From positions 55,596 to 119,595 of the forward strand of contig NZ_CANMCZ010000001.1 in assembly GCF_947496485.1 (NCBI RefSeq): a stretch of 64,000 nucleotides of DNA. Direction: 5' to 3'. The notes below the pieces were generated by a model. It had not been told where the DNA came from. It ran no database searches and saw nothing but the letters and a program-made list of their open reading frames with translations. Shown piece by piece: positions 25,849-49,909 of this stretch. This DNA comes from an uncultured Winogradskyella sp. Lineage in GTDB: Bacteria; Bacteroidota; Bacteroidia; Flavobacteriales; Flavobacteriaceae. Positions within the stretch are counted from its first letter, which is position 1; every line of letters begins with the position of its first letter. The translations under genes and the position numbers were made by a program.

Positions 25849-25875
25849 TTGGTTTACCAATCTGGTTTACCAAAT
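25849..25875. promoter_or_regulatory. Tandem GntR/FadR-type operator (TGGTTTACCA-N3-TGGTTTACCA) overlapping a minus-strand -7 element
   Basis: Same architecture at 35666 and 49884; the minus strand reads TATATTTG directly into the operator. Confidence 0.75.
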
Positions 25876-25882
25876 ATAGTGA

Positions 25883-27049
25883 TTATTTCTTAATCCACAA
25901 CAGCGGAAACTTTATTGGCATATTTCTTATAATTTCTTGTTTTTCAGGAATTTCCGGAAGAGATCTCCAAAGTTCTAAATAACTTTCATCATTATAAGCC
26001 AAGGCACCAAATAAAACAGAGGTTTGTTTTGTTGGCCAATCTTCCCAATACATCACATCTTTTTGATATGGCCAATCATCCTTACTTTTTATATATTTAG
26101 TCATTAAATTTAGTCCTAAAACCAGACTCTTTCCATCTTCAGTTTCAAACTTAAATAAGTCATCGTTATTGGTCGACAAAATTTGTGCAAGTCCACAAAA
26201 AGCATCTAAGTTAAAAATAGAGTATCCATATGGTTTTGTTCTCGCCAATTCTTTGGGAAAACTTCCATCCTCACCCATTTGCTCTGGCAGTAAGGTGTTT
26301 TTAAAAAAGTTTTTGCACCATGTCAGTTGTTCTTCGTTTTCTGTAAGTTCTGCAAAAGCAGCAACCTGCATTGCCCAACATGTACTGTGATTGTTACCAT
26401 TATCACGCTCCTTTTTTCCGTAACTATGAGAAGTTAACCAACTCAAGTAGTCTTGAAACCATTCTTTAACCATTTTTAAATCAGAGTCTTGCATTAATCC
26501 TGAAGTCTCAACTACACGTATTGCTTTAGAAACTTCGATTAAATGAATTGTATCAATGATGCCAATACCTCTTCCTGTAACACGACCTTTTATAGCTTGT
26601 GCATACATTAAATTAGGGTTCATTTTAGTTTCATTGTTAACGAACCAAGCTCTTAAATGTGGAATTAAATCCTCAATATATTTATTGTTTTCTGTGACTA
26701 AATAAGCTGAAGCAAGAGATCCTGAAATTCTACTTAATCTTATCATAGCTATGCGATGCTCTGTAAAATTATCGGGATTAGTTAAACCGTCTTTTCTAAT
26801 GTAAGCACTATCTGGATGCTTGGGATTTGGCCACCAATAATCACCTTCAGAATAAAAATCATGAATTCCACCAGCACTTCTTTCAGAATAATAAGACGTT
26901 ACTGTTAAAGGTTTAAGATTAGAATAGTTTTTTGCTTCCTTAAGAATATATTTTCTTTCTAAGTCTAAAACAACTTGGAAATCCGTAGGCTGCTCTGTGC
27001 AGTTAAACACTGTACCTAAAAGAAAAATAATAAGCTTATAATGCCTCAT
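25883..27049 (-). CDS. Alginate_lyase (PF05426-like) family polysaccharide lyase, probably PL38; lipoprotein
   Basis: SEGDYWWPNP...YIRKDG, GIGIIDT, NNHSTCW and ELARTKPYGYSIFNL motifs; lipobox-like VFNC. Confidence 0.75.
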   Translation of the reverse strand: MRHYKLIIFLLGTVFNCTEQPTDFQVVLDLERKYILKEAKNYSNLKPLTVTSYYSERSAGGIHDFYSEGDYWWPNPKHPDSAYIRKDGLTNPDNFTEHRIAMIRLSRISGSLASAYLVTENNKYIEDLIPHLRAWFVNNETKMNPNLMYAQAIKGRVTGRGIGIIDTIHLIEVSKAIRVVETSGLMQDSDLKMVKEWFQDYLSWLTSHSYGKKERDNGNNHSTCWAMQVAAFAELTENEEQLTWCKNFFKNTLLPEQMGEDGSFPKELARTKPYGYSIFNLDAFCGLAQILSTNNDDLFKFETEDGKSLVLGLNLMTKYIKSKDDWPYQKDVMYWEDWPTKQTSVLFGALAYNDESYLELWRSLPEIPEKQEIIRNMPIKFPLLWIKK

Positions 27050-27060
27050 GAAAAAATAAA

Positions 27061-27103
27061 AAAATCTTCAAACTTCAGAAGTATACTTTCGTTTGAAGAT
27101 TTT
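27061..27103. terminator. Hairpin between the GH2 and PL38-like genes
   Basis: 13-bp arms aaaatcttcaaac/gtttgaagatttt with an inner aagtatactt palindrome; terminator or mRNA-stability element. Confidence 0.55.
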
Positions 27104-27122
27104 AAATCAAATTACTAATAAA

Positions 27123-29546
27123 CTACTCAATTGTTAAATATGTACCTTTAAAATTCTGATTTAATACCATCATTTTTATAGGTTGATCTGTTGCTATTCG
27201 CTTTACCTCAATAGAAGCTTTTCCATTTGCCATTTCAATAGACTCGCTACCAGTTGGAGTTCCTAAGCTTTTATATGTTTCACCGCCAGATAAACATTGA
27301 AAATAAACTCGTTTCTCATAATCTAAACAGCGTAATCCATTACTGTCGTGAGCTATTGCAGTTATAAGGTAATTCCCATTGTCCATTATCTTATATTCTA
27401 ACTTTAACCCTTTTGCCTTTTCATTTTTTGTGAATCGATAATTTACATCTAACTCATCCTTTACTTCATTTCCATCGTTTGTTTTACCAACAGACACTAA
27501 TGAGTTTTTACCTTCTTTAAAGTTGAGTGACCAATTTAATCCTGCGGCAGGAAATGCCTTAGTATCTCGCCTTTTAGTTCCAAGACTTTTCCCATTTAAA
27601 AATAATTCTACTTCACCACAATTACTGTAAACGCTTATATCTCTAGCCAAATCTTTTGGACCTTGACGTTCTGTCCAGGTATGTGATTCTATATAAGTAA
27701 AAGGATCTGTTGTGTTCCAATAACTTTTAAATACATAAAACGCATCTTTTGGATTGTTATCTCTATCTACCAAGCCTTTTTGATTCATATAAGGGATTGC
27801 ATTTTCTGGTCGTAATGGTGTACCAAAATCTTTAAAAGCCCATTGTGCATTACCTATAAAAGTTGAATCATTTTCTGAAATGCGCAAGTGCCAATCAAAT
27901 AAGTCAACAATATAATTCTCACTCCAATCGCCTATTTGTGCAATATTTGCTACATCTGTTTGTACAATCGCTTCTTCCCAACCATCAGCCTGTATTTTAC
28001 CTTCACCTGTAATAGGATTCTCGGTATGTCGTCCTAAATGACTCGACCCACCATATTCAGTATGTATAAAATGTTTATACTCTGCTTTATACTGATTAAT
28101 TGCTTTTTGATAACTTTTATAGCTTCCAGAATACCAACCAGACCAAATTGATGGTGAAAAAACATCAACTATATCAGCTCCTTCATAATACTTTCTAATC
28201 GCTGTTTTACGTGAATGATCTAACTCATGCGCATAGTCATTCAATTCTTTTAAATAGACATTAATATTCTCTCTATTATCACCTCCTTCAAAATCTGGTA
28301 GCCAATAAATTTCATTTCCTAAAGACCAAAAAATAATACTTGGATGATTATAATTTTGCTCAATAATTTCCTTGAGCATACCTTTAGTATTTTTCTTCCA
28401 TGCGTCATTTCCTAATCCACCTCGGCACCAAGGTAACTCATCCCAAACTAATAAGCCAAGTTCGTCACAAGCTTTATAAACTTCAGGATCTTGAGGATAA
28501 TGTGCTAATCGCACAAAATTAGTTCCCATATCTTTAATGAGTTCCATATCCGCTCTATGCTGTTCATTACTCATTGCTGCACCAACACCTGCATGCTCCT
28601 CGTGCCTGTGAGTTCCTCTTAATAATAATCGCTTACCGTTTAAGTAGAAGGCACCGTAATCTTTAAACTCGAACCATCTAAAACCTACTTTATCCGAAAT
28701 CTCATCTATTACAGCTTCTTTATCTAAAAGCTGAACATTTAACGTATAGAGGTTTGGATTATCAGTATCCCAAAGTTTAATATTCTCAATCCCATTGAAA
28801 CTAATTTCTAACTCTGAATCTGAAGCGTCGAAAGCTTGAGATCGTATCTCATTACCTTCACCATCAATCAATGTTGCCTTAATTCTTGAATCATCATTTA
28901 AATTATTGACGTCAAAAACTGCCAATAAATCTGAACTTTCGTTTGAAACATTTGGTGTCGTAATTTTTAAATTAGATAAATGCTGTGATGGTAAAGTTTC
29001 TAACCAAACATCTCTGGTGATACCTCCAAAAATAAAAAAGTCACTTTTTTGAGACGGAATAACTTCTGGATCATAGCCATTATCAGCACGCACTAAAATT
29101 TCATTCGATCCACTTGAAATTGCATTAGTAATATCAATCGTAAAACCGATGTAGCCACCAATATGACCACCAACTTTGTTGCCATTGACATAAACTTCAC
29201 ATGTAATATTGACACCTTCAAAATAAAGCTGATAGATTTGACCTGAAACTTTAAAAGGTATATCTAAAGTCTTTTTATACCAACTTCCTGATCGTCTGTA
29301 ACCTGGCTCTAAATCTGTTGCATCTAATGCATTCCATGTATGAGGCAAGTTTATATTTTGCCAATTGTCTTGATCTAATGCATCACTTATGTTTTCTGTA
29401 TTGTTTTCTAAATACAACCAGTCATTATTTATATTTGTTTTACTGCGTTCTTGACTTTTGTTTTCAGTCGTATTATTACAAGAGAACAGCAAGAAACTGA
29501 AGCTACATATAGCTACGAACTTAAAAAGTATAGATTTTGATATCAT
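27123..29546 (-). CDS. Glycoside hydrolase family 2 (beta-glucuronidase/beta-galactosidase type), lipoprotein
   Basis: LPHTWN, LYFEGVN, HIGGY, GFRWF, RLAHYPQ, NHPSIIFWSLGNE (acid/base) and TEYG (nucleophile) motifs; lipobox LFSC. Confidence 0.92.
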   Translation of the reverse strand: MISKSILFKFVAICSFSFLLFSCNNTTENKSQERSKTNINNDWLYLENNTENISDALDQDNWQNINLPHTWNALDATDLEPGYRRSGSWYKKTLDIPFKVSGQIYQLYFEGVNITCEVYVNGNKVGGHIGGYIGFTIDITNAISSGSNEILVRADNGYDPEVIPSQKSDFFIFGGITRDVWLETLPSQHLSNLKITTPNVSNESSDLLAVFDVNNLNDDSRIKATLIDGEGNEIRSQAFDASDSELEISFNGIENIKLWDTDNPNLYTLNVQLLDKEAVIDEISDKVGFRWFEFKDYGAFYLNGKRLLLRGTHRHEEHAGVGAAMSNEQHRADMELIKDMGTNFVRLAHYPQDPEVYKACDELGLLVWDELPWCRGGLGNDAWKKNTKGMLKEIIEQNYNHPSIIFWSLGNEIYWLPDFEGGDNRENINVYLKELNDYAHELDHSRKTAIRKYYEGADIVDVFSPSIWSGWYSGSYKSYQKAINQYKAEYKHFIHTEYGGSSHLGRHTENPITGEGKIQADGWEEAIVQTDVANIAQIGDWSENYIVDLFDWHLRISENDSTFIGNAQWAFKDFGTPLRPENAIPYMNQKGLVDRDNNPKDAFYVFKSYWNTTDPFTYIESHTWTERQGPKDLARDISVYSNCGEVELFLNGKSLGTKRRDTKAFPAAGLNWSLNFKEGKNSLVSVGKTNDGNEVKDELDVNYRFTKNEKAKGLKLEYKIMDNGNYLITAIAHDSNGLRCLDYEKRVYFQCLSGGETYKSLGTPTGSESIEMANGKASIEVKRIATDQPIKMMVLNQNFKGTYLTIE

Positions 29547-29549
29547 ATA

Positions 29550-30725
29550 TTATAAAGCGTTTAATCTCAGTAAAGTTTCTAAAAAATAATAGTCACCATA
29601 AACTATTGGTTCATCCATTTCATCTTTTTTAGGCCAATTACCTGTACTATGATCTAAAATAAATGGAGCTTCTACAGCAGCGTCTAATATATAAGCTTCA
29701 GACTGTAGACTATTGATGACCTTTTTACTATAATCTAAATATCTTTTGTCTCTTGTATACCCATAGAGTTCAACGAGTGCTGACGCCACAACTGTACCAG
29801 CAGATACATCTCTGACTGCGTTAGGTATTCCTGGATCTTCAAAGTCCCAATATGGAATGCCATCATCAGGTAAATTTTTGTGATTTAGAAAAAAGTTAGT
29901 ACTCGCAATAGCTCTGTCTAAATACTTTGTATTCTTAGTATAACGATATGCCATTGTATAACCATAAATTCCCCAACCTTGTCCCCTTGCCCAAGAAGAC
30001 TCATCATTATATCCTTGGTGTGTTACTTTCAATCTCGGTTGACCAGTAATGGTATCATAATCTACAACATGATAACAGCTATTGTCTGGTCGAAAATGGT
30101 TTTTTAATGTTGTATTAGCATGCGTAATTGCCAATTTATGAAAAGTACTATCTCCAGATATTTTAGTAGCTTCAAAAAGCAATTCTAAATTCATCATATT
30201 ATCTATAATGACAGGAAATTGCCAAATATCTCTATTGAAATCCCAAGAGCGAATACTACCAATATCTTCTTTAAAACGCGTACTTAATGTTTCAGCACTT
30301 TCTACTATTATTTTTTTATAGGCATCATTGTCTTCATGCTTCAATCCATTTCCAAAGCTACAAAATACTTTGAAGCCCATATCATGTGTACGATTATTGA
30401 ACTTTTCTTGCTCAATAAAAGCTGTCCATTCTTTAGCTTTATCCTTAAACGCTTCATCTCCTGTCAACTCATATATTTGCCACAGATTACCAGCAAAAAA
30501 ACCACTCGTCCAGTCCTTTGATGGTACTTTTTTAATCTCATTTTTTTTGTGAGAATAACTTCTTGGAAATGATAAAGAATCTGCTTGATAAGACATTAAT
30601 TTTGCATAGCGCTTTTGTAACTGTTTCTCTATTGATTCAGGTTCTTCATTAATAGACTTTGACTCATTTTTACAACTTATCAATAGTGTAAAAGCAAACA
30701 TTAGTATAAGGATATTTTTACTCAT
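29550..30725 (-). CDS. GH88 unsaturated glucuronyl hydrolase, lipoprotein
   Basis: DWTSGFFAG, HDMGF, VIIDNMMNL, WARGQGWGIYG, YWDF, RDVSA and YGDYYFLE motifs; start MSKNIL at 30725. Confidence 0.92.
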   Translation of the reverse strand: MSKNILILMFAFTLLISCKNESKSINEEPESIEKQLQKRYAKLMSYQADSLSFPRSYSHKKNEIKKVPSKDWTSGFFAGNLWQIYELTGDEAFKDKAKEWTAFIEQEKFNNRTHDMGFKVFCSFGNGLKHEDNDAYKKIIVESAETLSTRFKEDIGSIRSWDFNRDIWQFPVIIDNMMNLELLFEATKISGDSTFHKLAITHANTTLKNHFRPDNSCYHVVDYDTITGQPRLKVTHQGYNDESSWARGQGWGIYGYTMAYRYTKNTKYLDRAIASTNFFLNHKNLPDDGIPYWDFEDPGIPNAVRDVSAGTVVASALVELYGYTRDKRYLDYSKKVINSLQSEAYILDAAVEAPFILDHSTGNWPKKDEMDEPIVYGDYYFLETLLRLNAL

Positions 30726-30943
30726 AATTACATGTAACATCTTAAAGATTAGAATAAAAACAATTCAATAAAATAACTTAGGTTTTAATATTACAATACT
30801 CAACTGTTTTTAGAATACTAAAACTAGCAAAAAGCATTAAAGTATAAGTACAAATTAGGGTATATAAATATCCTAATTATTATTTCGATAGAAGGAATGA
30901 TAACATATTTCAAAGAAACAGAGATTCTTCCTTTATCAAAAAA

Positions 30944-30973
30944 AAAATCGACTCTATGACTAGAGTCGATTTT
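30944..30973 (-). terminator. Intrinsic terminator downstream of susD
   Basis: aaaatcgactcta-tgac-tagagtcgatttt stem next to a long A-tract (U-tract on the minus strand). Confidence 0.8.
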
Positions 30974-31012
30974 GATATTTATTATACTAGGTATTTAAAG
31001 CATAATTAAGAA

Positions 31013-32542
31013 TTAATATCCTGGATTATTAGGCATTAAATTTGGATTTCTTGCTAACTCATCTGCAGGTAATGGGTATAAATAATCTTGATCCTCAGAG
31101 AATCCAGGCTTAGCACCTTCTAAACCAGAAGCACCAAATACTTGTGGCCCGATTCTTCTTCTAGCGATGTCATACCATCTCTTAAACTCAAAAGCAAGTT
31201 CCCATTTACGCTCTTCTAAAACCATATCTCTGAAATCACTCTGAGATAAACCAGAAATATCTGCAGGAAACAAACCGGAAGTTACTCCATTACTATTTCT
31301 TGCTCTAGCTCTAACTCTATTTAAATAACCTTCTGCTTCCGTTGAGCCTGGGCTAACTTCATTCAATGCCTCTGCAGCTATTAGTAATACTTCTGCATAA
31401 CGTATCATAGAATAATTTTGTTGTGACCCTCTTCCATTTCCAGTAGCAGTTATACCTGTATTACGAGTGTATTTTGCAATATGTGGACGATTTACACCTC
31501 TACCACTTGCTCCACTTTCTTTAAACACTGTATAAGGCTGTGTAACTCCATTAAAGACTCCAGTAGTATCTAAACTAACAGCTTTTCTATAATCTCTGCC
31601 GTCCCATGTGTTGTAAACCTCTAGAGAAGGAACTGCAACAGACCAACCTCCACCAAGGTCATATTGTTCGTCATTTCTAAGACCAGTTAATGCTGCTTGA
31701 TAATCTCTACCTGTATCACCATCACTAAATCCATTAAAATCTAAAGCAAATATTGGCTCCAATGATCCGTCTATAGTGGTAGCATCGAATAAGTCTTGAA
31801 AATCAGCTTCTAAACCTAAGTTATAAGTACCTTCATTATCAATAACTCCTTTTGCCTCATTATAAGCACTTTGGTAATCACCAGTAGTTAAATACACTAG
31901 CGCTAAATATGAATGCGCTGCTGACTTGGCAGGTATAGATCTAGCTGCTTGCGTGTTAGGCAACCAAGTTTTAGCAAACTCTAAATCTGATATAATGTTT
32001 GTATATACATCAGCAGCAGAAGTTTTGCTGATTGAGCCTGCTGCATCAGCATCTGTTACTGGTTCATCTAAATAAGGAATAGCTCCAAATTGTCTTACTA
32101 AATGAAAGTATGCAAAAGCCCTAACAAAATAAGCTTGAGCTACAACTGGATTTTTCTGTTCATCAGGTGCACCTACCAAAGCAGATCCTGCAATAGCTTG
32201 ATTAGCAGCGGCTATAACTTGATAAACTCTTTGCCAATAACCCGAAATCATTCCATTATCGGTTGGGACATTAAATTCTTCGTGCTCAATTCTCCTTGTT
32301 GACGTTGTTGGATCACCTATAGATACCATATCACTTCGTAACATCAATGGCAATGACATTTTTCTTCCCCAGAAATCCTCTGTGGTCATATGTCCATAAG
32401 CTCCATTAACAGCGGTTTGAATATCTGCTACGCTGTTAAAAAATCCTTCAGGCGCTAGTAAACCTGATGGCTCCTCTTCTAAGTCTGAGCATCCCATTAT
32501 TGATACACCTATCAATAATAATAAAATTTTGTACGTTTTCAT
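31013..32542 (-). CDS. susD: SusD/RagB family glycan-binding lipoprotein
   Basis: Lipobox MGC; AYFVRAFAYFHLVRQFGAIP, IRYAEVLLIAAEA, ERKWELAFE and YLYPLP motifs. Confidence 0.95.
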   Translation of the reverse strand: MKTYKILLLLIGVSIMGCSDLEEEPSGLLAPEGFFNSVADIQTAVNGAYGHMTTEDFWGRKMSLPLMLRSDMVSIGDPTTSTRRIEHEEFNVPTDNGMISGYWQRVYQVIAAANQAIAGSALVGAPDEQKNPVVAQAYFVRAFAYFHLVRQFGAIPYLDEPVTDADAAGSISKTSAADVYTNIISDLEFAKTWLPNTQAARSIPAKSAAHSYLALVYLTTGDYQSAYNEAKGVIDNEGTYNLGLEADFQDLFDATTIDGSLEPIFALDFNGFSDGDTGRDYQAALTGLRNDEQYDLGGGWSVAVPSLEVYNTWDGRDYRKAVSLDTTGVFNGVTQPYTVFKESGASGRGVNRPHIAKYTRNTGITATGNGRGSQQNYSMIRYAEVLLIAAEALNEVSPGSTEAEGYLNRVRARARNSNGVTSGLFPADISGLSQSDFRDMVLEERKWELAFEFKRWYDIARRRIGPQVFGASGLEGAKPGFSEDQDYLYPLPADELARNPNLMPNNPGY

Positions 32543-32567
32543 GTTTTTTGTTTTTTCTTTAAATTTA

Positions 32568-35500
32568 TTAAAATCTTAGGTTAACTCCAAAATTAAAGGA
32601 TCTGACAGTTGGATAATTACCAAAATCGAAGCCTTGAGTTGTATTACTTTCTGAATTGCCTTGACCACCTGTTCCAAAATAACTTACTTCAGGATCTAAA
32701 CCAGAATAATCTGTTATTGTGAATAAGTTTTGTGCACTTACCGATATTCTAACACTCTCTAAACCTATCTTCCCTATAACGTCTTGAGGCAAGTTATAAC
32801 CAATGGCTATATTCTTTAATCTAATGTAACTTCCATCTTCTACGAAACGAGAAGAAATTTCTTTACCTCTAAGCTTAGCACGTGGAATATCTGTATTTGT
32901 ATTAGATGGTGTCCACGAGTTTAATACATCAGTTGTAGCATTAGAATCTCCATTAAACAACTGTACATTTGTAAGATTCATAATATCTCCACCTTGTACT
33001 CCTTGAAAAAAGATATTTAAATCAAAGTTTTTATAGGTAAAGTTATTTGTAAAACCAAATGTCCAACCTGGATTAGGATCCCCTATTATTTTTTTATCAT
33101 CGCCTGGAGAAATTACACCATCACCATCTAAATCCGTAAATAATTGATCACCTGCCTCTGCACCTGGTAAAATTCCTGTGCCTTCTGGTAACGAACCACC
33201 TTGGTAAACGCCTTGATATTCATAACCCCAAAAAACACCAACAGCTTCACCTTCTCTTAAAATATGGGTTTCATCTATATTAAAATAACCTGGAGACGCA
33301 TCAAGTATTATATCCTCACCATCTAACAATGTCACAAATTCATTTTTATTTGTAGACCAGTTTAAATCTGTAGTCCAAGTAAAATTCTCATTGCTTATGT
33401 TTCTTGTATTTAAATTTATTTCAAAACCTTTGTTATTCATCTCACCTACATTTTTTAAGCTAGGTAAAATACCAAAGTATTCTGGTTGAGACGTTTCTCT
33501 TATAATAAGATCTCTAGTATCTATATTATAATAATCTAATGACAATGAAACTTTATTATTAAGTAAACCAACATCTAAACCAATATTTGTTTGATAAGAT
33601 GTTTCCCATTTTAAATTAGGATTAGCTGCAACTTCTGGAAAAACAGCATTTACTGTTTGTCCGTTTAAGACAGCGTAAATATTATTGAATTGGGCTAAGG
33701 ACTCATATGCGCCAATAGCTTGATTACCTGTTAAACCATAACTAGCTCTAAATTTTAGATTAGAGATTTCTTCAATATTTTGCATGAAGTCTTCATTAGA
33801 TACTTTCCAACCAATTGCACCAGATGGAAATATAGCATACTTTTCATTTGCAGCAAAGTTAGAAGCACCATCTCGTCTTACAGTAGCAGTTAATAAGTAT
33901 TTATCATCCCAATCAAAATTTAATCTACCGAATTGTGATTGAATCTCTGATTCTACAAAGGAAGAAGACGGAAGTAACGGCACTGCACCACCACCTAAAT
34001 TATTAAATGAAAATGAATCTGATGTAAATCCTTGAGCACCTGCCGCAAAGCGTTGCGTATTTGTCTTCTGATAAGAATAACCTGCTAATAAGGTTAAGTT
34101 ACCTTTTCCAATTTCTCTGTTATAGGTTAAGTAATTCTCACTTAAAAGACTTGTTCTCTTAAAATTTTCAATTGCAGCGCTACCACCAATAGGTCCAGCA
34201 GTCTCAGTTAATGTTGAAGGTCTAAATAGACCAAAAGTCTCATTTCTGGTACTGTAACCAAAAGTCGTTTTAAAATTAAGACCTTCTAAAATATCATAAC
34301 TCGCATATAAGTTTGCTCTATAATCATCCCTTTTTGTTTGATTTACAGATTCAGTCGCAATGGCATAAGGATTGTCAACGTTATCTCCTACAGAGTTAAT
34401 TGTATTAATGCCGTTTTCATCTTGTATAGGTAAATCTGGTGCAAATCTAAACATCAATGAAATAACATCATCTCCACCTCCATTTGCAGTTTCACCTGTA
34501 GATTGTGTTGGTACACCATCCTGAGATCCTCTATTGGCAAATAGATTCATACCTAGTTTTAACTTGTCTGTAACTTGCGCATCAACATTTCCTAAGAAAG
34601 ATATTCTTTCAAATTCAGAATTTATAACAACTCCTTCTTGTTTAAAATAGTTGGTTGATGCATAAAAGTTAACATTTTCACTACCACCAGAAAAAGAAAA
34701 CTGATGATTTGAAACGCTACCGCCTCTATACAATAAATCTTGCCAATCCGTTTCGGCATTGCCTGGTGCATATCCAGGATTTAATGCAGTTTGATAAGTT
34801 GCAAATTGATCTGCGTTTAGTAAATCAAGTTCGTTTGCAGTATTTTGAGTAGAATAATTTGAATTAACCTCAACAGTTAATTTACCGCTTCTACCCTTTT
34901 TTGTAGTTACTAAAACAACACCATTTGAACCTCTAGATCCATAAATGGCCGTAGCAGAAGCATCTTTTAAAATCTCCATAGATGCGATGTCATTAGGTTG
35001 TGGCATCGTTGCACCTACAAAACCATCTACAACTATAAGGGGATTACTACTCGCGTTAATTGAAGTATTTCCTCTAATTTTAATATTGATTGGTGCACCA
35101 GGCTCACCACCATTATTAGATTGAACTACTACACCAGCAGCTCGCCCTTGAAGTGCTTGTTCTGCATTCAATAAAGGAAATGCATTTAGTTCTTTGGCTT
35201 TTACTGAAGAAACGGCTCCAGTTACATCACTTTTCTTTACTGATCCATAACCAACAACTACGATTTCATTAAGTTGATTAGTATCTTCTAGTAACGTTAC
35301 GTTAATAACAGATTGGCTTCCCACAGTTATTTCTTGTGGGACAAAACCAATATAACTGAAGACCAACACAGCCGTTCCATCTTCAACCTCGATACTATAA
35401 TTACCGTCAAAATCTGTAGTTGCACCTTGGGTTGTACCTTTAACCAGAATATTTGCACCTGGTAATGGCAATCCATTCGGACTACTCGAAACTTTACCAG

Positions 35501-35594
35501 TTACGGTTTGCTGAGCATTTAATGCTAAGCCGAATAAAAAGAATATCGAAAGTGATATCCATTTCACCTTTGCTTTTCTTAGTTGTTTTTGCAT
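32568..35594 (-). CDS. susC: SusC/RagA family TonB-dependent transporter
   Basis: CarboxypepD-like N-domain; VVVGYG, ILKDASATAIYGSRGSNGVVLVTT and NPNLKWET motifs; C-terminal Phe. Confidence 0.97.
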   Translation of the reverse strand: MQKQLRKAKVKWISLSIFFLFGLALNAQQTVTGKVSSSPNGLPLPGANILVKGTTQGATTDFDGNYSIEVEDGTAVLVFSYIGFVPQEITVGSQSVINVTLLEDTNQLNEIVVVGYGSVKKSDVTGAVSSVKAKELNAFPLLNAEQALQGRAAGVVVQSNNGGEPGAPINIKIRGNTSINASSNPLIVVDGFVGATMPQPNDIASMEILKDASATAIYGSRGSNGVVLVTTKKGRSGKLTVEVNSNYSTQNTANELDLLNADQFATYQTALNPGYAPGNAETDWQDLLYRGGSVSNHQFSFSGGSENVNFYASTNYFKQEGVVINSEFERISFLGNVDAQVTDKLKLGMNLFANRGSQDGVPTQSTGETANGGGDDVISLMFRFAPDLPIQDENGINTINSVGDNVDNPYAIATESVNQTKRDDYRANLYASYDILEGLNFKTTFGYSTRNETFGLFRPSTLTETAGPIGGSAAIENFKRTSLLSENYLTYNREIGKGNLTLLAGYSYQKTNTQRFAAGAQGFTSDSFSFNNLGGGAVPLLPSSSFVESEIQSQFGRLNFDWDDKYLLTATVRRDGASNFAANEKYAIFPSGAIGWKVSNEDFMQNIEEISNLKFRASYGLTGNQAIGAYESLAQFNNIYAVLNGQTVNAVFPEVAANPNLKWETSYQTNIGLDVGLLNNKVSLSLDYYNIDTRDLIIRETSQPEYFGILPSLKNVGEMNNKGFEINLNTRNISNENFTWTTDLNWSTNKNEFVTLLDGEDIILDASPGYFNIDETHILREGEAVGVFWGYEYQGVYQGGSLPEGTGILPGAEAGDQLFTDLDGDGVISPGDDKKIIGDPNPGWTFGFTNNFTYKNFDLNIFFQGVQGGDIMNLTNVQLFNGDSNATTDVLNSWTPSNTNTDIPRAKLRGKEISSRFVEDGSYIRLKNIAIGYNLPQDVIGKIGLESVRISVSAQNLFTITDYSGLDPEVSYFGTGGQGNSESNTTQGFDFGNYPTVRSFNFGVNLRF

Positions 35595-35665: not shown

Positions 35666-35692
35666 TTGGTTAACCAAACTGGTTTACCAAAT
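35666..35692. promoter_or_regulatory. Tandem GntR/FadR-type operator overlapping the susC -7 element
   Basis: TGGTTAACCA-aac-TGGTTTACCA; the minus strand reads TATATTTG directly into it. Confidence 0.75.
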
Positions 35693-35933
35693 ATACTAAA
35701 AATTATGTTAATTTTAGTATTTACTTCTTTACATAGTGTTAAATTTTAAATGAAGTAAATAATAATCAAACCAAGTGTAACTATTACCGAAGCTAATATT
35801 ACTTCTAAATAAAACTTATTTGATTTGTTATTTTTCACATCCTAAATTTAACTTAAAACATCGTTGTAAAAATCCTAAAAAGGGGGTAAAAACATCCGAA
35901 AAAGCCTAATTGTAGTCCATTATATTTAAACTA

Positions 35934-38900
35934 CTAATAATCTGAAGAGAATCTATTAGTATATTGGGTTGGAGTCTCACCAAATTTCTTTTGAAAACAT
36001 TTACTGAAGTATTTGGGATTTCTAAAACCAACCTTATAACTGACTTCAGAAATATTGATTTTTCCTTGTTCAAGAATCTGAGCTGCACGCTTCATTCTAA
36101 AATGCATAATAAATTCATTAGGAGTAAAATTTGTCCAAGCTTTTACTTTCGTAAATAGCATAGTTCGGCTAACTCCCAAGTCCGTGCAGAAATACTGAAC
36201 ATCAAATTCCTCATTACCGATATTATCCTCAACAATTTGAAGTGCTTTTTTATAAAGCTTCTCATCTAAAGAGGAGATCATAATTTCATTGGGTTGCAAT
36301 GGATCTTCTGACGTATATTTTTGTTTTAGACGAGAAGTAGATTCTAATAAGTTTTTAATTCTTAATTTAAACTCATTGACATCAAAAGGTTTGCTGATAT
36401 AATCATCTGCGCCACTTTCTAGACCTTCTAGCTTATATATTAAAGATGTCCTCGATGTTAATAAAATAATGGGTATATGACTTGTCTTAATATCTCCTTT
36501 AATTGCCGAGCACAATTCTGTGCCAACCATTACTGGCATAATAACATCACTCACAATTAAATTTGGAGATTCTTTTTGTGCAATTTTTAAAGCCAGTTTA
36601 CCATTCTGTGCTTCTAAAATGTTATAATTCTCCTCCAATATGCTTCGCATAAACTTTCGGAGTGGATTATGGTCTTCAACTAATAATATGGTTTGTTTGT
36701 CTCCAGAAAGTGGTTGCACAGCAATATCGTCTTCTATGATCTGATTGGGTGTATCTAACTGTTTTACATATTGTGAGATATCATCACTAAACTTAAAATC
36801 CCTAATTATTTCATCTTTTTTCAAATGAGCACAACCTAAGGGAAGTACTACTGAAAAAATAGATCCTTCTCCACTTTCGTTATTTCTAACGTCAATTTTT
36901 CCTTTATGCAAATCGACAATATTCTTTGCTATGGACAGTCCTATTCCTGTACCTTTGCTATAATTATCATCAGGTTGATTATTTGTAGCAACTTCAAAAA
37001 ATCTATCAAAAATCTTTTCGTGATACTCTTTAGCAATTCCAACTCCAGAGTCTTCAACTTGTATTATGATTTCTTCATTTTCTTTTTTCACCTTAATTGT
37101 AATTTTACCACCATGAGGAGTGTATCTAAACGCATTTGAGATTAAATTATAAAAAACACGCTCTAGTTTATAGCGATCGTAATACACAAGTATTTCATCA
37201 TCGGAAGTATGAAAACTATAATCGTAACCTCTATCCTTAGCATACTCACTAAAGGACAAATAAATTTCCTTTAAAAACTTCACAAAATTACCTTCAGCAG
37301 ATTCGAGCTTTAATAAATTATTTTCAAGCTTTCTAAAATCCATTAAACGGTTAATAAGTTGTAGTAGTTGATTAGCACTACTTTCTATAATCATTAATTT
37401 TTTATACATCTTACTGCTACCCTTATAGTCCTCTAGGATCTGATGTAATGGCCCAGTGATTAAGGTTAGAGGTGTTCTAAACTCATGAGAAATATTAGTA
37501 AAAAATTCTAATTTTGCTTTGTTAGCCTCCTTGGTTCGTTCTACTTCTAGGTGCTCTAACTCTAATTGTGTTTGTAGTTTTGTTCTAGATTTTAGAATAT
37601 GCATTAAAAAATATAAAGCGCCTAAAATAAGGACTCCATAAATTAAAAATGCCCACCAACTCCTCCAAGGTGCTGGTGCTACTTTTATGATTAATTGAGT
37701 AGGATTTTCATTCCATATACCATCACTGTTAGCTCCTTTTACCTCAAATACATAATCACCTGCATTTTGTATAGTATACGATGCATTATTTTCAGTAGTC
37801 TCAACCCAATCATCCTCGAGTCCCTTTAATCTGTACTTATACCTATTGTTATTAGAGTTAATAAAATTTGGGACCGCAAATGCAACGCTAAAGTTACCTT
37901 GATTATAAGCAAGTTCTAGATCTTCTGTGAAAGTGATTGTTTCTTTTAAAACTGAATTTTTATTATTTAAATCAACTGATTTTTGTTTTATTTTAAAATC
38001 TGTAATGATGACTTGTGGTGCGTAATCATTAATATAGAGTTGTTGAGGATTGAAAAAAGTCACACCAGATGGACCACCAAAATAAAACTTAGAATTTTCG
38101 ACTTTAAGGCTAGAATTATCATTAAACTCATTACTTACCAAACCTTCTTTTTGATCGTAGATGATACTCTTATTCGTTTCTGGGTTAAATTTAACTAAGC
38201 CTTGATTTGTTGATATCCAAAGATTATTGCTTTTGTCTTCAAGGATACTGTGCACTGAAGATACTATAGTTTCATTAGCAATTAAATCTACTGATTGAAA
38301 TTTAGAATCTATTAACTTATATAAGCCTTTAGCCTTTGTACCAACCCAAATGGTTTGGTCATTAGCTTCATAAATTGATAAAACATCGTCTCCTGCTTCA
38401 ATGTTTTTCTCATAAAAATAGGTTGTGATATTACCTTCTGGATTTACTTTATTCAACCCATGCTCTGTGCCAACCCAAATATTTTCTTTTGAATCTATCT
38501 CAATGGTTCTAACCAAATTACTCGATAATGAATTCGAGACTTGCTCATTAAAACTGTAAGCATCAAATGTTTTATTAATAAGACTATATTGTACCAATCC
38601 CTTTCCAAAAGTACCTAACCAAATATTAGAATTTGCATCTTCTTTTATAGCATAAATGCCTACATCACTTAAATAGTCCATCAGTTCTGGTGAAAGTATA
38701 GATGTATTAAACTTATTTATTTTGGGATTGTATAATACAAGTCCAGAGTCGAAAGTACCAATCCAAAGATTATCATTTTTAGATATATGCAGCGATTTTA
38801 TATTATCGTTTAAAAGTTGTGGTGAATTATTTTCATTAATATAACTGTAAGAGTTATTGTTTTTGTTAAGTCTGGTTATTCCACCTCCTTCGGTTCCAAA

Positions 38901-40004
38901 GTAGATATAGTCTTTATAATTTTCTATTGAACTTACTACATTATAGCTTAATCCTGAACCATCAGGGTTTTGAATAATATTTACAAAATTTTTATTTGAT
39001 ACGTCCCAAACATTAATACCACCATAATACGTCCCTATCCAAATTGAGCCTTTTTTATCTTTAAATATAGATTTTATTGAATTTTTACTTAGACTCTTTG
39101 AATCTTTAATATTTGTTGTTAAAACGGTTTCATTTTTCTTCTTGTCAACAATTACAAGGCCACTGTAAGTACCTATCCAAAGTTTTTGGTCGTCATCATA
39201 TTGTAATTGTCTGGCGTTAATTTTACTTTGTACATCTTTATCATTAGATAAATAACTTTCTATTTCTTTCGTCTTTGTATGATACACCAAAACACTATGA
39301 CCTCTTGTTGCAAGTAGTAAGTTTCCGCCTAAGCTCTCAACTATATCCTGAATGTATAATTCTTTAGTATTTGAGACAACTTCAAAATTTAGCTGATTAA
39401 AGTCTAAAACTTTAATCAATCCATTCGATGTACCTATATAAACTGAATTATTTTTAGTCTCGAGGATGGATAAAACTTGGTTTCCTGAAAAATCATTTTC
39501 GTTTAGCTTATTTAAAAAGCTTTTGAAAGAATCAGAGCTTTTATCATATACTGAAATGCCATTAGATGTTCCTACCCAAATAGCTCCATTAGACAATTCT
39601 TCTATGGTCCAAATTGTATTGTTGACTAACGATGATTGGTCATTACTATGAAAATATCGTGTAAATGCGTTTGTCTTAGGATTATATTTATTTAATCCAT
39701 TGTAGGTACCAATCCAAATGTAACCTTCACTATCTTGCTTTATGGATAAAATATCATTGTTACTAATGGAATTTGGCTTATCCACTGAATTTCTATAAAC
39801 AGTGAATTTTGTACCATCGTACTTATTTAGCCCATCTCTGGTACCAATCCAAATCTGACCTAAATTGTCTTGTTCTATGACAATTGCTGAACTTTGAGAT
39901 AATCCATCTGTTGTAGATATATGTGTAAATGGATAGTTTTGAGTTTGTGAAAAACCAATAGTACTAAAGGTAAAAAGAAGCAATAAAATTTTAAGTTTAT
40001 TCAT
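35934..40004 (-). CDS. Hybrid two-component system sensor kinase/response regulator (HTCS, AraC output)
   Basis: Beta-propeller repeats (IWIGT), Y_Y_Y domain, TM, HisKA (FFTNISHEFRTPL), HATPase (GTGIGL), receiver (LIVSDVIMP) and AraC HTH (VGFRNPKYFSKCF). Confidence 0.96.
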   Translation of the reverse strand: MNKLKILLLLFTFSTIGFSQTQNYPFTHISTTDGLSQSSAIVIEQDNLGQIWIGTRDGLNKYDGTKFTVYRNSVDKPNSISNNDILSIKQDSEGYIWIGTYNGLNKYNPKTNAFTRYFHSNDQSSLVNNTIWTIEELSNGAIWVGTSNGISVYDKSSDSFKSFLNKLNENDFSGNQVLSILETKNNSVYIGTSNGLIKVLDFNQLNFEVVSNTKELYIQDIVESLGGNLLLATRGHSVLVYHTKTKEIESYLSNDKDVQSKINARQLQYDDDQKLWIGTYSGLVIVDKKKNETVLTTNIKDSKSLSKNSIKSIFKDKKGSIWIGTYYGGINVWDVSNKNFVNIIQNPDGSGLSYNVVSSIENYKDYIYFGTEGGGITRLNKNNNSYSYINENNSPQLLNDNIKSLHISKNDNLWIGTFDSGLVLYNPKINKFNTSILSPELMDYLSDVGIYAIKEDANSNIWLGTFGKGLVQYSLINKTFDAYSFNEQVSNSLSSNLVRTIEIDSKENIWVGTEHGLNKVNPEGNITTYFYEKNIEAGDDVLSIYEANDQTIWVGTKAKGLYKLIDSKFQSVDLIANETIVSSVHSILEDKSNNLWISTNQGLVKFNPETNKSIIYDQKEGLVSNEFNDNSSLKVENSKFYFGGPSGVTFFNPQQLYINDYAPQVIITDFKIKQKSVDLNNKNSVLKETITFTEDLELAYNQGNFSVAFAVPNFINSNNNRYKYRLKGLEDDWVETTENNASYTIQNAGDYVFEVKGANSDGIWNENPTQLIIKVAPAPWRSWWAFLIYGVLILGALYFLMHILKSRTKLQTQLELEHLEVERTKEANKAKLEFFTNISHEFRTPLTLITGPLHQILEDYKGSSKMYKKLMIIESSANQLLQLINRLMDFRKLENNLLKLESAEGNFVKFLKEIYLSFSEYAKDRGYDYSFHTSDDEILVYYDRYKLERVFYNLISNAFRYTPHGGKITIKVKKENEEIIIQVEDSGVGIAKEYHEKIFDRFFEVATNNQPDDNYSKGTGIGLSIAKNIVDLHKGKIDVRNNESGEGSIFSVVLPLGCAHLKKDEIIRDFKFSDDISQYVKQLDTPNQIIEDDIAVQPLSGDKQTILLVEDHNPLRKFMRSILEENYNILEAQNGKLALKIAQKESPNLIVSDVIMPVMVGTELCSAIKGDIKTSHIPIILLTSRTSLIYKLEGLESGADDYISKPFDVNEFKLRIKNLLESTSRLKQKYTSEDPLQPNEIMISSLDEKLYKKALQIVEDNIGNEEFDVQYFCTDLGVSRTMLFTKVKAWTNFTPNEFIMHFRMKRAAQILEQGKINISEVSYKVGFRNPKYFSKCFQKKFGETPTQYTNRFSSDY

Positions 40005-44026: not shown

Positions 44027-44041
44027 AAAAAAATAGGAATT

Positions 44042-44122
44042 ACACCCCTAAAGTCCCCTCAAGGGGACAATCCTAAAAATAAACTTGGGGAAATTGTCCC
44101 CTTGAGGGGACTTTAGGGGTGT
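44042..44122. repeat. REP doublet (REPIN-like): perfect 30-bp inverted repeat with 21-nt spacer
   Basis: acacccctaaagtcccctcaaggggacaat (44042-44071) and its exact reverse complement (44093-44122); each arm has an internal GTCCCCT-CA-AGGGGAC palindrome. Confidence 0.85.
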
Positions 44123-44157
44123 TTATTGTAAAACAATTAAAGATAAAATAACAAAAT

Positions 44158-45793: not shown

Positions 45794-45794
45794 C

Positions 45795-46952: not shown

Positions 46953-46953
46953 T

Positions 46954-47943: not shown

Positions 47944-48434
47944 TGAATAAATCTGATCTTATTTTTAATAAAGTATGCCGAATTCTCGAATGGTTTATGA
48001 TCGTGATTTTTGCGCTTTTAGTTCTGGATGTTTTGTTCCAGGTGTTTTCAAGATATCTTTTAGGTACATCCTTTACATGGACCGAAGAATTTGCGCGATT
48101 CGCATTAATTTGGATGACCATTTTAGGAGCTGCCTATCTCAGTGGCAAAAAAGAACATTTATCAATGGATTTTTTATATCAAAAATTCTCTGAGTCTAAT
48201 AAAAGAAAAGCTTCTATTCTTATTGAGGTATTGATATTTCTATTTGCACTTATCGTCATGGTTATTGGCGGATTAAATTTAGTATACACAACCTTACATT
48301 TAGAACAACTTTCTGGTACGTTAAGAATTCCTTTAGGCTATGTATATGCTGTTATGCCATTCAGTGGTTTTCTAATCATGTGCTTTTCGATATATCACAT
48401 TTCAAAAATTTATAACAACAAAAACAATAATTAA
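47943..48434 (+). CDS. dctQ: TRAP transporter small permease DctQ
   Basis: QVFSRY...WTEEFARF...HLSMD motifs; 4 TM segments. Confidence 0.93.
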   Translation: MNKSDLIFNKVCRILEWFMIVIFALLVLDVLFQVFSRYLLGTSFTWTEEFARFALIWMTILGAAYLSGKKEHLSMDFLYQKFSESNKRKASILIEVLIFLFALIVMVIGGLNLVYTTLHLEQLSGTLRIPLGYVYAVMPFSGFLIMCFSIYHISKIYNNKNNN

Positions 48435-48436
48435 TT

Positions 48437-49741
48437 ATGAGCATAGAAGTTATAAGTATTATCGTTTTGTTTGTGAGTTTCTTTACGCTCTTGTTACTCA
48501 AAGTACCTGTAGCTTATAGTATCGGTATAGCAACAACATTAAGTCTATTACTAAATATTGATAAATTACCTGGTTTAACAACTATTGCCCAGCGAATGAC
48601 CACAGGTATTGATAGTTTTGCATTGTTGGCTATTCCCTTCTTTATTCTGGCAGGTGATATTATGAAACGCGGAGGTATTGCCACACGACTCATCAATTTC
48701 GCTAAATCTTTAGTATCAAGTCTTCCAGGTGGATTAGCTTATGTAAATATTTTAGCATCGATGTTATTTGGTGCCATTTCTGGTTCTGCGCTTGCGGCCG
48801 CGTCTGCAATTGGCAGTATAATGACGGATAGAATGGAAGAAGAAGGTTACCCAAGAACCTTAAGTGCGTCCGTAAATATTACAGCTTCAACTACTGGTTT
48901 ATTAATTCCACCGAGTAACATTTTAATTGTTTATGCCTTAGCAAGTGGAGGAACAGCCTCTGTAGCCGCTTTGTTTATTGCAGGTTATCTTCCTGGAATA
49001 CTATTAGGTTTTGCTATTATGGGTTATGTGGCTTTTATAGCTATTAGTAAAGGTTATGCAAAAGGTAAACGTGCGACATTGCGTGAAGTTTGGACATTTT
49101 TCAGAAAGGCTTTTTTTAGTTTATTATTATTAGTTATTGTCGTTGGTGGTATTGTCGCAGGAATTTTTACAGCTACGGAAGCTTCAGTAATCGCTGTTTT
49201 ATATGCAGCAGTATTATCATTGGCTTATGGTGATATGAAAGTAAAAGATTTTTCAGGAGTATTATTATCTAGTGCTAAAACCACAGCTGTTGTTATGTTT
49301 TTGATTTGTACATCTATGGCAATGTCATGGTTGTTTTCGTTTGAAGGCATTCCTGAAATGATAAGCACCTTTCTATTAGAATCGTTAAATAATAAATTCG
49401 CGATCTTTTTAGCAATTAATCTTATCCTATTGGTTATTGGAACATTTATGGACATGACTCCTGCTGTTTTAATTTTTACACCAATTTTTCTACCTGTAGT
49501 AACCGCTTTAGGAATGGATCCTGTACACTTTGGGATTGTGATTGTACTGAATTTATGTATTGGGATTTGTACACCTCCCGTAGGAACACTACTCTTTGTA
49601 GGTAGTGGTGTTGCAAAAGTTTCGGTCACGCAGGTTATAAAACCATTGTTGCCGTTTTTGTTAATTATGGTAGTTGTATTAATGCTAATCAGTTTTATTC
49701 CAGAAATTTCAATGTTTTTACCAAGATTGTTTGGATTGTAA
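48437..49741 (+). CDS. dctM: TRAP transporter large permease DctM
   Basis: AIPFFILAG, FGAISGSA, LIPPS, GIFTATEA and TPPVG motifs. Confidence 0.95.
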   Translation: MSIEVISIIVLFVSFFTLLLLKVPVAYSIGIATTLSLLLNIDKLPGLTTIAQRMTTGIDSFALLAIPFFILAGDIMKRGGIATRLINFAKSLVSSLPGGLAYVNILASMLFGAISGSALAAASAIGSIMTDRMEEEGYPRTLSASVNITASTTGLLIPPSNILIVYALASGGTASVAALFIAGYLPGILLGFAIMGYVAFIAISKGYAKGKRATLREVWTFFRKAFFSLLLLVIVVGGIVAGIFTATEASVIAVLYAAVLSLAYGDMKVKDFSGVLLSSAKTTAVVMFLICTSMAMSWLFSFEGIPEMISTFLLESLNNKFAIFLAINLILLVIGTFMDMTPAVLIFTPIFLPVVTALGMDPVHFGIVIVLNLCIGICTPPVGTLLFVGSGVAKVSVTQVIKPLLPFLLIMVVVLMLISFIPEISMFLPRLFGL

Positions 49742-49772
49742 CATCGAATAGTTTGGATTGTAACATCGAATA
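49729..49772. repeat. Tandem 22-bp duplication spanning the dctM stop codon
   Basis: GTTTGGATTGTAACATCGAATA twice (49729-49750, 49751-49772) followed by GTTT. Confidence 0.9.
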
Positions 49773-49883
49773 GTTTTATTAGTCAACACCCGTATTCTTG
49801 AACTGACAATTTGCAAGGCAAAACTGTTTGATTTGGTATAGTTTTGGTAATACTATTTTCAGATTTAAAAAATATACTATATA

Positions 49884-49909
49884 TTGGTAAACCAATCTGG
49901 TTAACCAAT
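49884..49909. promoter_or_regulatory. Tandem GntR/FadR-type operator, third copy
   Basis: TGGTAAACCA-atc-TGGTTAACCA, ending 15 nt before the ATG at 49925. Confidence 0.75.

Follow-up and report, generated by a model that had tools for sequence, protein, structure and literature searches.

In Zobellia galactanivorans DsijT, alginate utilisation is controlled by AusR (ZGAL_2617), a GntR-type regulator of the FadR subfamily (Dudek et al. 2020, PMC7641319). The AusR operators follow the pattern [TKGTN2-3ACMA], come in pairs that are 3 bases apart and overlap a TAnnTTTG box (PMC7641319). They occur in one to three copies at distant loci and are bound by AusR in EMSA, with modest in vitro affinities (KD 0.6-1.6 uM in Zobellia). 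Unsaturated alginate trisaccharides are the effectors, and uronate monomers have no effect (PMC7641319). For AraR of Bacillus subtilis, the same paper describes that paired operators at enzyme promoters lead to strong cooperative repression and that the gene for the regulator itself, with its single or weak operator, is mildly repressed (PMC7641319). The operator comparison with Zobellia that is presented below is based on the main text of that paper.

The window analysed here is a stretch of 64,000 nucleotides from an uncultured Winogradskyella sp., and two further groups of regulators are relevant to it. UxuR and ExuR of Enterobacteria are hexuronate repressors that also belong to the FadR subfamily of GntR proteins. 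They bind TTGGT-N2-ACCAA-type palindromes before uronate catabolic genes; their signals are metabolites at the level of the monomers, the catabolism of which they control. In Bacteroides thetaiotaomicron, Schwalm et al. reportedly described in 2016 that the chondroitin sulfate PUL is under layered control, with a local hybrid two-component system (HTCS) and further signals. To our knowledge, very little is known in marine flavobacteria about how different PULs are coordinated when the cells encounter entire cell walls of algae instead of purified polysaccharides.

A sequence-only reading of the window had pointed out three double palindromes with a 13-bp period. Scanning the window located the exact motif TGGTWWACCA-N3-TGGTWWACCA (TGGTWWACCANNNTGGTWWACCA) at 25850-25872, 35667-35689 and 49885-49907, so the palindromes are real and the coordinates of that reading were one base too low. 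When up to three mismatches were tolerated, the number of double sites in the window remained at three, compared to 0.06 expected from shuffled sequences. In the whole genome (4.11 Mb), six exact double sites were found where base composition predicts 7e-5, and a seventh, near-exact site carries two changes, both in W positions. These expected counts for window and genome rule out a chance origin. Genomic double sites with three or four mismatches (n = 47) were regarded as noise: they are scattered, 45 of the 47 lie within long ORFs, and an alginate-related gene was not found downstream of any of them in the whole genome. The sites share a 23-bp core with a mean pairwise identity of 0.87, together with a few conserved flanking bases. 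Their outer flanks show an identity of 0.32-0.38, which is background. Because this background level is reached past about 10 nt, the sites are not copies of a repeated mobile element, and a mobile repeat or promoter cassette was ruled out.

All seven double sites are intergenic, and each is fused to a -7 box that is oriented with transcription. The operator form across the seven sites is TGGTNNACCA-N3-TGGTNNACCA. Comparison with the published AusR motif, as the sequence-only reading had proposed, gave agreement in the paired [TKGTN2-3ACMA] pattern, the 3-base spacing and the overlap with TAnnTTTG. At four of the seven sites the -7 box is an exact TAnnTTTG that overlaps the operator by 2 nt, and at the other three it deviates once each (TATATTGG at two sites, TATAATTG at one). 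The -7 element that had been described as abutting two of the palindromes is present as TATATTTG with a 2-nt overlap at the first two window sites, and the third has TATATTGG.

Each of the window sites precedes the gene to which it had been assigned before. Site S1 (25850..25872; TGGTAAACCA-GAT-TGGTAAACCA on the minus strand), with its -7 box TATATTTG at 25878..25871 on the same strand, lies 4 nt past the stop codon (25883-25885) of a PL38-like gene and 113 nt upstream of the ATG of its target. This target (24813..25736, minus strand) encodes a T9SS-secreted CBM-like protein. Its N-terminal ~200 amino acids share 43% identity with the C-terminal domain of the PKD lipoprotein of the alginate PUL (60009-60992), and it is probably a uronan-binding module. 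Site S2 (35667..35689; TGGTAAACCA-GTT-TGGTTAACCA on the minus strand) is separated by 72 nt from the ATG of an HTCS-linked susC at 35594. Its -7 box TATATTTG (35695..35688, minus strand) overlaps the operator by 2 nt, and box and operator, referred to here as promoter P2, match the consensus exactly. Site S3 (49885..49907, plus strand; TGGTAAACCA-ATC-TGGTTAACCA) is preceded by the box TATATTGG (49880-49887, plus strand) and followed after 17 nt by the ATG at 49925 of a jelly-roll lyase-like gene (49925..50986, plus strand), the product of which is secreted (T9SS tail) and matches Pfam PF14099 (Polysacc_lyase). Orthologs of this gene in two other genera (G063 and G215) likewise carry a double operator, 15-36 nt upstream. 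A search of solved structures with this protein and with the N-terminal part of the 24813-25736 protein gave no useful match.

The whole-genome scan places the four remaining sites outside the window, where they precede the alginate susC, a PL17-kdgF operon, a PL7-PL6-kdgK-PL7 operon and a lone PL6-CBM32 gene. The sequence-only reading had named the lack of a site before the alginate operon as a refutation, but such a site is present: just beyond the window, the alginate susC, the PL17 gene and the PL7/PL6 operon each have one upstream. The genes downstream of the seven sites are all alginate-related or else belong to, or lie beside, the second PUL of the window (PUL2, see below). The S5 operon of this set contains a gluconokinase/6PGD fusion. 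The seven promoters would be expected to respond to alginate, and the list includes three uncharacterised secreted proteins, namely the CBM-like module, the PF14099 lyase-like protein and PL6-CBM32.

The GntR protein encoded at 59132..59845 (minus strand), a predicted AusR ortholog of the FadR subfamily, combines a GntR winged helix-turn-helix with an FCD domain (PF00392, 1.6e-17; PF07729, 1.5e-23), and its best PDB relatives are GntR proteins of the same subfamily. No second protein with an FCD domain is encoded in this 99.99%-complete genome; the three further proteins with a GntR-type HTH have 353-503 amino acids. The closest named relatives of the regulator come from Winogradskyella (91% identity) and Psychroserpens (86-87%), and the relatives returned by a scan for related loci all showed at least 79% identity. 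The surrounding gene order, PL17-cupin-susC-susD-PKD-GntR-MFS-SDR and further on kdgK-kdgA, agrees with the alginate utilisation system of Zobellia (AUS, PMC7641319). In a comparison of 20 genera, each of the 17 that have an AusR ortholog (65-82% identity) also has double operators, and the three that lack the ortholog have none (Fisher p = 0.0009). Given that it is the sole FCD-domain GntR, the AusR-like gene order and this co-occurrence, the GntR protein is almost certainly the binder of the double palindromes. The genome-wide FCD search and the co-occurrence leave it as the only credible binder of these FadR-subfamily operators, as the sequence-only reading had supposed. The promoter of the regulator gene itself (59863..59878, minus strand) consists of the -7 box TAAATTTG and, in fusion with it, the degenerate operator TGGTAAAtaA, and autoregulation is expected to be weak or absent. 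Overall, we consider it likely that the double palindromes are operators of this AusR-type repressor, which would control a regulon of seven promoters, with P2 joining the HTCS-linked PUL2 to it.

PUL2 is an operon on the minus strand (25883..35594) that comprises susC (32568-35594), susD (31013-32542), a GH88 gene for an unsaturated-glucuronyl-hydrolase-like enzyme (29550-30740), a GH2 gene for a beta-glucuronidase-like enzyme (27123-29546) and the PL38-like lyase gene (25883-27049). The nearest matches of the GH88 protein are unsaturated glucuronyl hydrolases (3wiw, 2.4e-89), and those of the GH2 protein are beta-glucuronidases (6d7j, 2.7e-184). The genes uxaC, uxuAB and kduID, which represent the glucuronate and DKI pathways, are found near the operon. 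By enzyme similarity, PUL2 would be a glucuronan-type PUL with a GlcA polymer as candidate substrate. It is adjoined at susC/susD by an intact HTCS gene (35934..40004, minus strand) with all domains present, namely the Reg_prop and Y_Y_Y domains of a propeller sensor, HisKA, HATPase_c, Response_reg and an AraC-type HTH (HTH_18). Upstream of P2, the conserved element GGATGTTTTTACCCCCTTTTTAGGATTTTTAC (35866..35897, minus strand) is followed by a -7-like box, TAAATTTA (35850..35843). The element is conserved at the orthologous loci with a linked HTCS in about 11 other genera, and on the basis of conservation and position we propose that it marks an HTCS-dependent promoter, P1. Between P1 and P2 lies a small ORF (35746..35838, minus strand) with a GTG start, which encodes 30 amino acids forming a single hydrophobic helix; orthologs of this peptide occupy the same position in eight other genera. 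No terminator was found between P1 and susC. The susC for which two inputs had been suggested carries a putative promoter region of the HTCS type as well as a promoter/operator of the AusR type, and the combination is kept in a clade of four genera.

HTCS orthologs (52-69% identity) adjoin the orthologous susC in 12 other genera, and operators fused to TATATTTG precede it in 10 other genera. Both occur together at the susC locus in the genome studied here and in G052, G215 and G063. These four dual loci form one SusC clade (support 98/97), within which the SusC proteins differ by 20-26%. HTCS without operators is found at the orthologous susC in about ten genera (nine counted), and three genomes with HTCS-susCD-GH88 lack AusR, operators and PL7 lyases alike. 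G161 has kept susCD-GH88 with four operators and no HTCS, and in G292, G288 and G018 a GntR gene directly adjoins a PUL2-type susCD pair. The PUL2 family therefore includes loci with HTCS only, with HTCS and AusR, and with AusR only, some of the last with a GntR gene beside susCD. Among the four dual genomes, the operator lies on differing sides of P1 and the small ORF, so that the regulatory logic may differ from one to another. From this distribution, conserved dual control of PUL2 by HTCS and AusR seems plausible. A further account, which we regard as evenly balanced between right and wrong, is that an AusR promoter/operator was recruited before an ancestrally HTCS-only GlcA-polymer PUL. 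The result would be a two-promoter gate at which an alginate signal primes or licenses the use of a second uronan, and the relatives would show every stage of regulator turnover. Searches of the literature did not turn up any description of AusR and an HTCS acting jointly on a locus, and the public sequencing runs found are metagenomic, genomic or unclassified, with none from RNA.

We weighed three other explanations of these data. That the palindromes are bound by the LacI-family protein encoded at 55870 or by the AraC-type output domain of the HTCS would be suggested by the proximity of both genes and by their control of uronate or PUL genes. AraC-type domains, however, usually bind direct repeats and not 10-bp palindromes. 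The LacI protein has a distinct palindrome of its own, TGCTTAAnCGATTAAGCA, which occurs twice in the divergent promoter region between kdgK/kdgA and the LacI gene (55755-55772 and 55835-55852) and has no other exact copy in the genome; it is predicted to be the site of a separate regulator, not of AusR. Furthermore, the double sites are found in genomes and at loci that have no HTCS ortholog but not in genomes that lack AusR, and their sequence fits the consensus of the FadR subfamily as well as the operator published for AusR (PMC7641319). LacI was rejected because of its own palindrome and the HTCS on motif type and distribution across genomes, which leaves such a binder as highly improbable.

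The other two explanations accept the sites as AusR operators and concern PUL2. It might be a second alginate locus, in which case there would be a single alginate regulon without cross-regulation. The nearest solved relatives of the PL38-like lyase are annotated as alginate lyases (3nfv; 8bdq, BoPL38), and BoPL38 is reported to degrade alginate. Moreover, PUL2-type susCD pairs stand beside a GntR gene in three genera, and the S1 gene is a paralog of the PKD protein of the alginate PUL. On the other hand, we know of no role in alginate breakdown for a GH88 unsaturated glucuronyl hydrolase or a GH2 beta-glucuronidase, to which the PUL2 enzymes are closest. The presence of uxaC, uxuAB and kduID alongside PUL2 and the occurrence of HTCS-susCD-GH88 in genomes that lack AusR, operators and PL7 lyases also speak against this explanation, and we consider it unlikely. 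Alternatively, only one control of PUL2 may work, either because P2 took over and HTCS and P1 are relics or because the operator is too weak compared to HTCS activation. The P1 box TAAATTTA is one base from consensus, and the relatives have resolved to GntR-only or HTCS-only states, which suggests that the dual state can be transitional. Yet no domain is missing from the intact HTCS gene, conservation is seen for the P1 element as well as for the small ORF, P2 matches the consensus exactly, and the dual state has been kept in four genera despite the divergence of their SusC proteins. A single working control therefore appears doubtful.

In the mechanism that we favour, with AusR acting at P2 and the HTCS at P1, one repressor dimer would bind each 10-bp palindrome TGGTWWACCA, and with a distance of 13 bp from centre to centre two dimers could be held cooperatively. 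The palindrome nearer to the promoter shares its first two bases with the end of the flavobacterial -7 box (TAnnTTTG, then G) and covers the start-site region, so that a bound repressor should keep RNA polymerase out. If the regulator behaves like AusR of Zobellia, it would be released by unsaturated alginate oligosaccharides that basal lyases produce. Transcription of PUL2 would then start at P2 in response to the alginate signal and at P1 in response to the signal of its own HTCS. The repressor at P2 would also stand in the path of transcripts from P1, possibly as a roadblock; because of the varying operator position, this effect would apply only to the genome studied here and to G063. The sequence-only reading had assumed integration through a shared metabolite such as DEH, KDG or GlcA. 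This assumption is not supported. The effectors published for AusR are trisaccharides, with no effect of uronate monomers, and the KDG-level genes kdgK and kdgA here carry the LacI-type palindrome instead.

Such a wiring could matter, as a repressor that senses alginate fragments and a sensor kinase for another uronic-acid polymer would act on one susC through two promoters. If true, a PUL-local repressor has extended its regulon to a neighbouring PUL, and the loci would illustrate regulator replacement during the evolution of marine flavobacterial PULs. The single-control variants in related genera offer natural comparisons for the dual layout.

Compared to UxuR and ExuR, the GntR sites here lie on lyase and PUL promoters, whereas kdgK/kdgA have a LacI-type site. 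AraR has a GntR-type N-terminal DNA-binding domain and differs from the present regulator in effector domain, phylum and promoter type. The layered control in Bacteroides resembles PUL2 in that an HTCS-controlled PUL has a second regulatory input. In contrast to that case, the second input here would come from a repressor that is local to a neighbouring PUL with a different target polysaccharide and acts through its own promoter/operator between the HTCS gene and susC. The closest likeness is to Zobellia AusR and is drawn from domains, gene order and operators, the present system being known from its sequence. Both regulators are encoded inside the alginate PUL between the genes for the PKD protein and the MFS transporter. 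In both organisms the operators are TKGT-N2-3-ACMA pairs, 3 bases apart and over the -7 box, the regulator's own promoter has only a degenerate site, and distant loci are under control or predicted to be so, among them genes for lone secreted lyases and for a gluconokinase. Since this operator layout has already been published for AusR (PMC7641319), the core of the sequence-only reading is not new, and the operator design is a rediscovery that adds nothing beyond Zobellia AusR except another genus. However, the Zobellia regulon is limited to alginate genes and gntK1, whereas the predicted regulon here also takes in the HTCS-linked susC with its GH88, GH2 and PL38-like genes, the PF14099 gene and a secreted CBM-like protein that stands alone. 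Only one aspect is new, namely the position of predicted AusR operators in front of a putatively HTCS-controlled PUL for a candidate GlcA polymer.

A pattern search for TGGTWWACCA-N3-TGGTWWACCA gave three exact matches in the window, at 25850 (S1), 35667 (S2) and 49885 (S3); allowing up to three mismatches, no match beyond these three double sites was found there (0.06 expected). The host genome (4.11 Mb, 33% G+C), in which the window spans C1:55596-119595, carries six exact double sites, versus 7e-5 predicted from base composition, and a seventh, TGGTTGACCAGATTGGTCAACCA, that deviates in the central W positions only. Double matches with 3-4 mismatches are scattered through the genome, 45 of 47 within long open reading frames. 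Oriented toward their target genes, the seven sites (S1-S7) are very uniform and read -7 box, TGGTaAACCA, three bases, TGGTwAACCAAtt. The -7 box is TATATTTG in three cases, TATATTGG in two, and TACATTTG and TATAATTG in one each. Across the 23-bp core the sites share an identity of 0.87, which drops to background (0.32-0.38) past about 10 bases on both sides. They are therefore short functional sites, and their background-level outer flanks rule out copies of a repeat element.

The sequence-only reading had placed distant genes, among them the HTCS-linked susC, under one regulator, and had named the lack of a site before the alginate operon as a refutation; this refutation fails, since sites are present there. 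S7 (C1:121290) lies 131 nt before the alginate susC, and the predicted regulon also takes in other alginate genes: S4 (C1:124213) precedes PL17 and a cupin (KdgF-like) gene, S5 (C1:136040) an operon of PL7, PL6, kdgK, PL7, an outer-membrane protein, a gluconokinase/6PGD fusion, Nramp, PL7 and SDR, and S6 (C1:1195466) a solitary, T9SS-tailed PL6-Big2-CBM32 protein. S2 stands before susC 32568-35594(-), followed by susD, GH88, GH2 and a PL38-like lyase (25883-27049(-)), the cluster called PUL2 here. The S1 target (24813-25736) is a T9SS-secreted protein whose first ~200 residues match, at 43% identity, the C-terminal domain of the PKD lipoprotein from the alginate PUL. S3 precedes a jelly-roll protein (49925-50986) with a T9SS tail and a PF14099 polysaccharide-lyase match, and its orthologs in two other genera are also preceded by an operator site. 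A second copy of this lyase-like gene, at C7:135949-136734 (58% identity, three stop codons), is a pseudogene paralog. Upstream of the S3 promoter region, directly after the TRAP gene dctM, a direct tandem duplication of ~21 bp (gtaacatcgaatagttt...) was seen at 49737-49778.

Dudek et al. (PMC7641319) described, before alginate genes of Zobellia galactanivorans and 12 further flavobacteria, a motif that joins a -7 box (TAnnTTTG) to FadR-subfamily operators (TKGTN2-3ACMA). The operators occur as pairs 'separated by three bases', or in one or three copies, and several distant loci carry the motif (PMC7641319). It belongs to AusR, the alginate repressor and a FadR-subfamily GntR, which when purified shows cooperative, operator-dependent binding and whose deletion leads to derepression (PMC7641319). 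The GntR at 59132-59845(-), already named as the binder from sequence alone, combines a GntR HTH with an FCD domain and is the only FCD protein of the genome (assembly 99.99% complete); the three other GntR-HTH proteins (353-503 aa) lack this domain and therefore belong to other subfamilies. Its gene lies in the order susC-susD-PKD-GntR-MFS-SDR, then kdgK and kdgA, which is the Zobellia arrangement. The closest named relatives are from Winogradskyella (91%) and Psychroserpens (86-87%), with hundreds more in Flavobacteriaceae. In 20 genomes of different genera, chosen solely because they have a susC orthologous to that at S2, AusR orthologs (65-82% identity) were found in 17, all of which have several double sites, versus none of the other three (Fisher p = 0.0009), apart from two one-mismatch matches in one of them (G251) whose half-sites are not palindromes. 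We conclude that the double sites are AusR operators. This supports the sequence-only reading on the binder, on the control of distant genes by a single regulator and on the site before the HTCS-linked susC. The promoter of the GntR gene itself has only a degenerate site, TAAATTTGGTAAAtaA, which fits the weaker autoregulation in Zobellia.

A LacI-family regulator nearby (KdgR-like, 55870-56886) was rejected as binder of the double sites, as it has its own palindrome, TGCTTAAnCGATTAAGCA, unrelated to the AusR-type site. The only exact genomic copies, at 55755-55772 and 55835-55852, occupy the promoter region between the divergent kdgK and LacI genes and are therefore probably the operator of this regulator. 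Between kdgA and uxaC, a truncated LacI-family ORF of 171 aa (53480-53995(-)) retains an HTH and the start of a sugar-binding domain; a second uronate regulator has probably decayed here to a pseudogene.

Aligning the regions upstream of 19 orthologous susC genes (60-80% identity) revealed three regulatory states. Nine genera have HTCS only: the HTCS end is followed by a conserved element (GGATGTTTTTACCCCCTTTTTAGGATTTTTAC, 35897-35866 on the minus strand in this genome), a -7 box, a leader ORF and susC, and the operator is absent; six of the nine have a hydrophobic leader ORF of 30-32 aa. Seven genera have AusR only, with 2-4 tandem operators of 13-bp period fused to TATATTTG and no adjoining HTCS ortholog; a GntR gene directly follows susCD in three of them, and GH88 is kept in one (G161). 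Four genera, namely this genome, G052, G215 and G063, have both, with an abutting HTCS ortholog (60-69% identity; 35934-40004(-) here) and operators between HTCS and susC. These four loci form one clade (98/97 support) in a maximum-likelihood SusC tree, midpoint-rooted for drawing only, within a larger clade containing the AusR-only loci; most HTCS-only loci are basal. The operator follows the leader ORF in this genome and G063, which has an apparent remnant of a second leader ORF, and in G052 and G215 it stands ahead of the conserved element. Both parts have thus been retained through rearrangement of the region.

Between the HTCS gene and susC, a conserved gene (35746-35838(-)) encodes a 30-aa single-helix microprotein (VKNNKSNKFYLEVILASVIVTLGLIIIYFI). 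Similar peptides (MKNxKxNKxYxE..IIYxS) occur at the same location in eight other genera. The microprotein could act as a leader peptide, or work in the membrane as a small partner to SusCD or the HTCS system. The intergenic stretch 35843-35897(-) holds two TTTTTAC-containing half-repeats ~21 bp apart and then a -7-like box, and it recurs at the orthologous loci linked to an HTCS. The AraC-type output domain of the HTCS may bind there.

The PUL2 enzymes are nearest to unsaturated glucuronyl hydrolases (GH88; 3wiw, 2.4e-89), gut beta-glucuronidases (GH2; 6d7j, 2.7e-184) and PL38-type enzymes (the lyase; 3nfv, 8bdq/BoPL38), and the PL38 family was founded on a glucuronan lyase. Neighbours are uxaC, uxuB, uxuA, kduI, kduD and a TRAP transporter. 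The HTCS-susC-susD-GH88 block is kept in many genera, including the three genomes without AusR, operators or PL7 lyase. Gene content and conservation indicate that PUL2 probably did not arise as an alginate locus; by similarity, its substrate is most likely a polymer with a high content of beta-linked glucuronic acid. Between uxuA and kduI (44027-44157) lies a long, perfect, G+C-rich inverted repeat (cacccctaaagtcccctcaaggggacaat ... attgtccccttgaggggactttaggggtg), unusual in this AT-rich genome, which could be of the REP type or serve as a strong terminator.

Site identity, the seven-promoter regulon and the conserved coexistence of two promoter regions at PUL2 are established by sequence comparison. 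By analogy to Zobellia, two AusR dimers would bind cooperatively and occlude the -7 box and start site, and unsaturated alginate oligosaccharides would release them. The position of the promoter region with the conserved element (P1) suggests that it is HTCS-dependent. The AusR-type promoter at S2 (P2), judging by where it lies, would make PUL2 expression dependent on alginate and independent of the HTCS, and AusR bound there, ~150 nt downstream of P1, may hinder P1 transcripts; no terminator is predicted between P1 and P2 in this genome. The integration through a shared metabolite (DEH, KDG, GlcA) suggested by the sequence-only reading found no support. The published effectors are oligosaccharides, the unsaturated trisaccharides dMM and dMG, and not glucose, gluconate, mannuronate or guluronate, the last two being the only uronate monomers tested, not DEH, KDG or GlcA (PMC7641319); KDG-level genes here have the LacI-type site instead.

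The operator design is already published (PMC7641319), and the operators are AusR operators rediscovered in another genus. In the literature searched, we found no report of an AusR regulon extended to an HTCS-linked, glucuronan-type PUL, nor of the series from HTCS-only through dual to AusR-only loci across genera. The proposed extension to PUL2 is of moderate interest for the field of PUL regulation. In the stretch 22149-24732, the PL6 gene adjoining PUL2 (22342-24732(+), chondroitinase-B fold) has no AusR operator upstream; it could encode a basal, constitutively expressed 'sentry' lyase, comparable to AlyA1 and AlyA7 of the Zobellia model. A gluconokinase/6-phosphogluconate dehydrogenase fusion (C1:127508-129394; L001 7913-9799) lies within the predicted AusR-controlled PL7-PL6 operon and parallels the gluconokinase gene gntK1 of the Zobellia AusR regulon.
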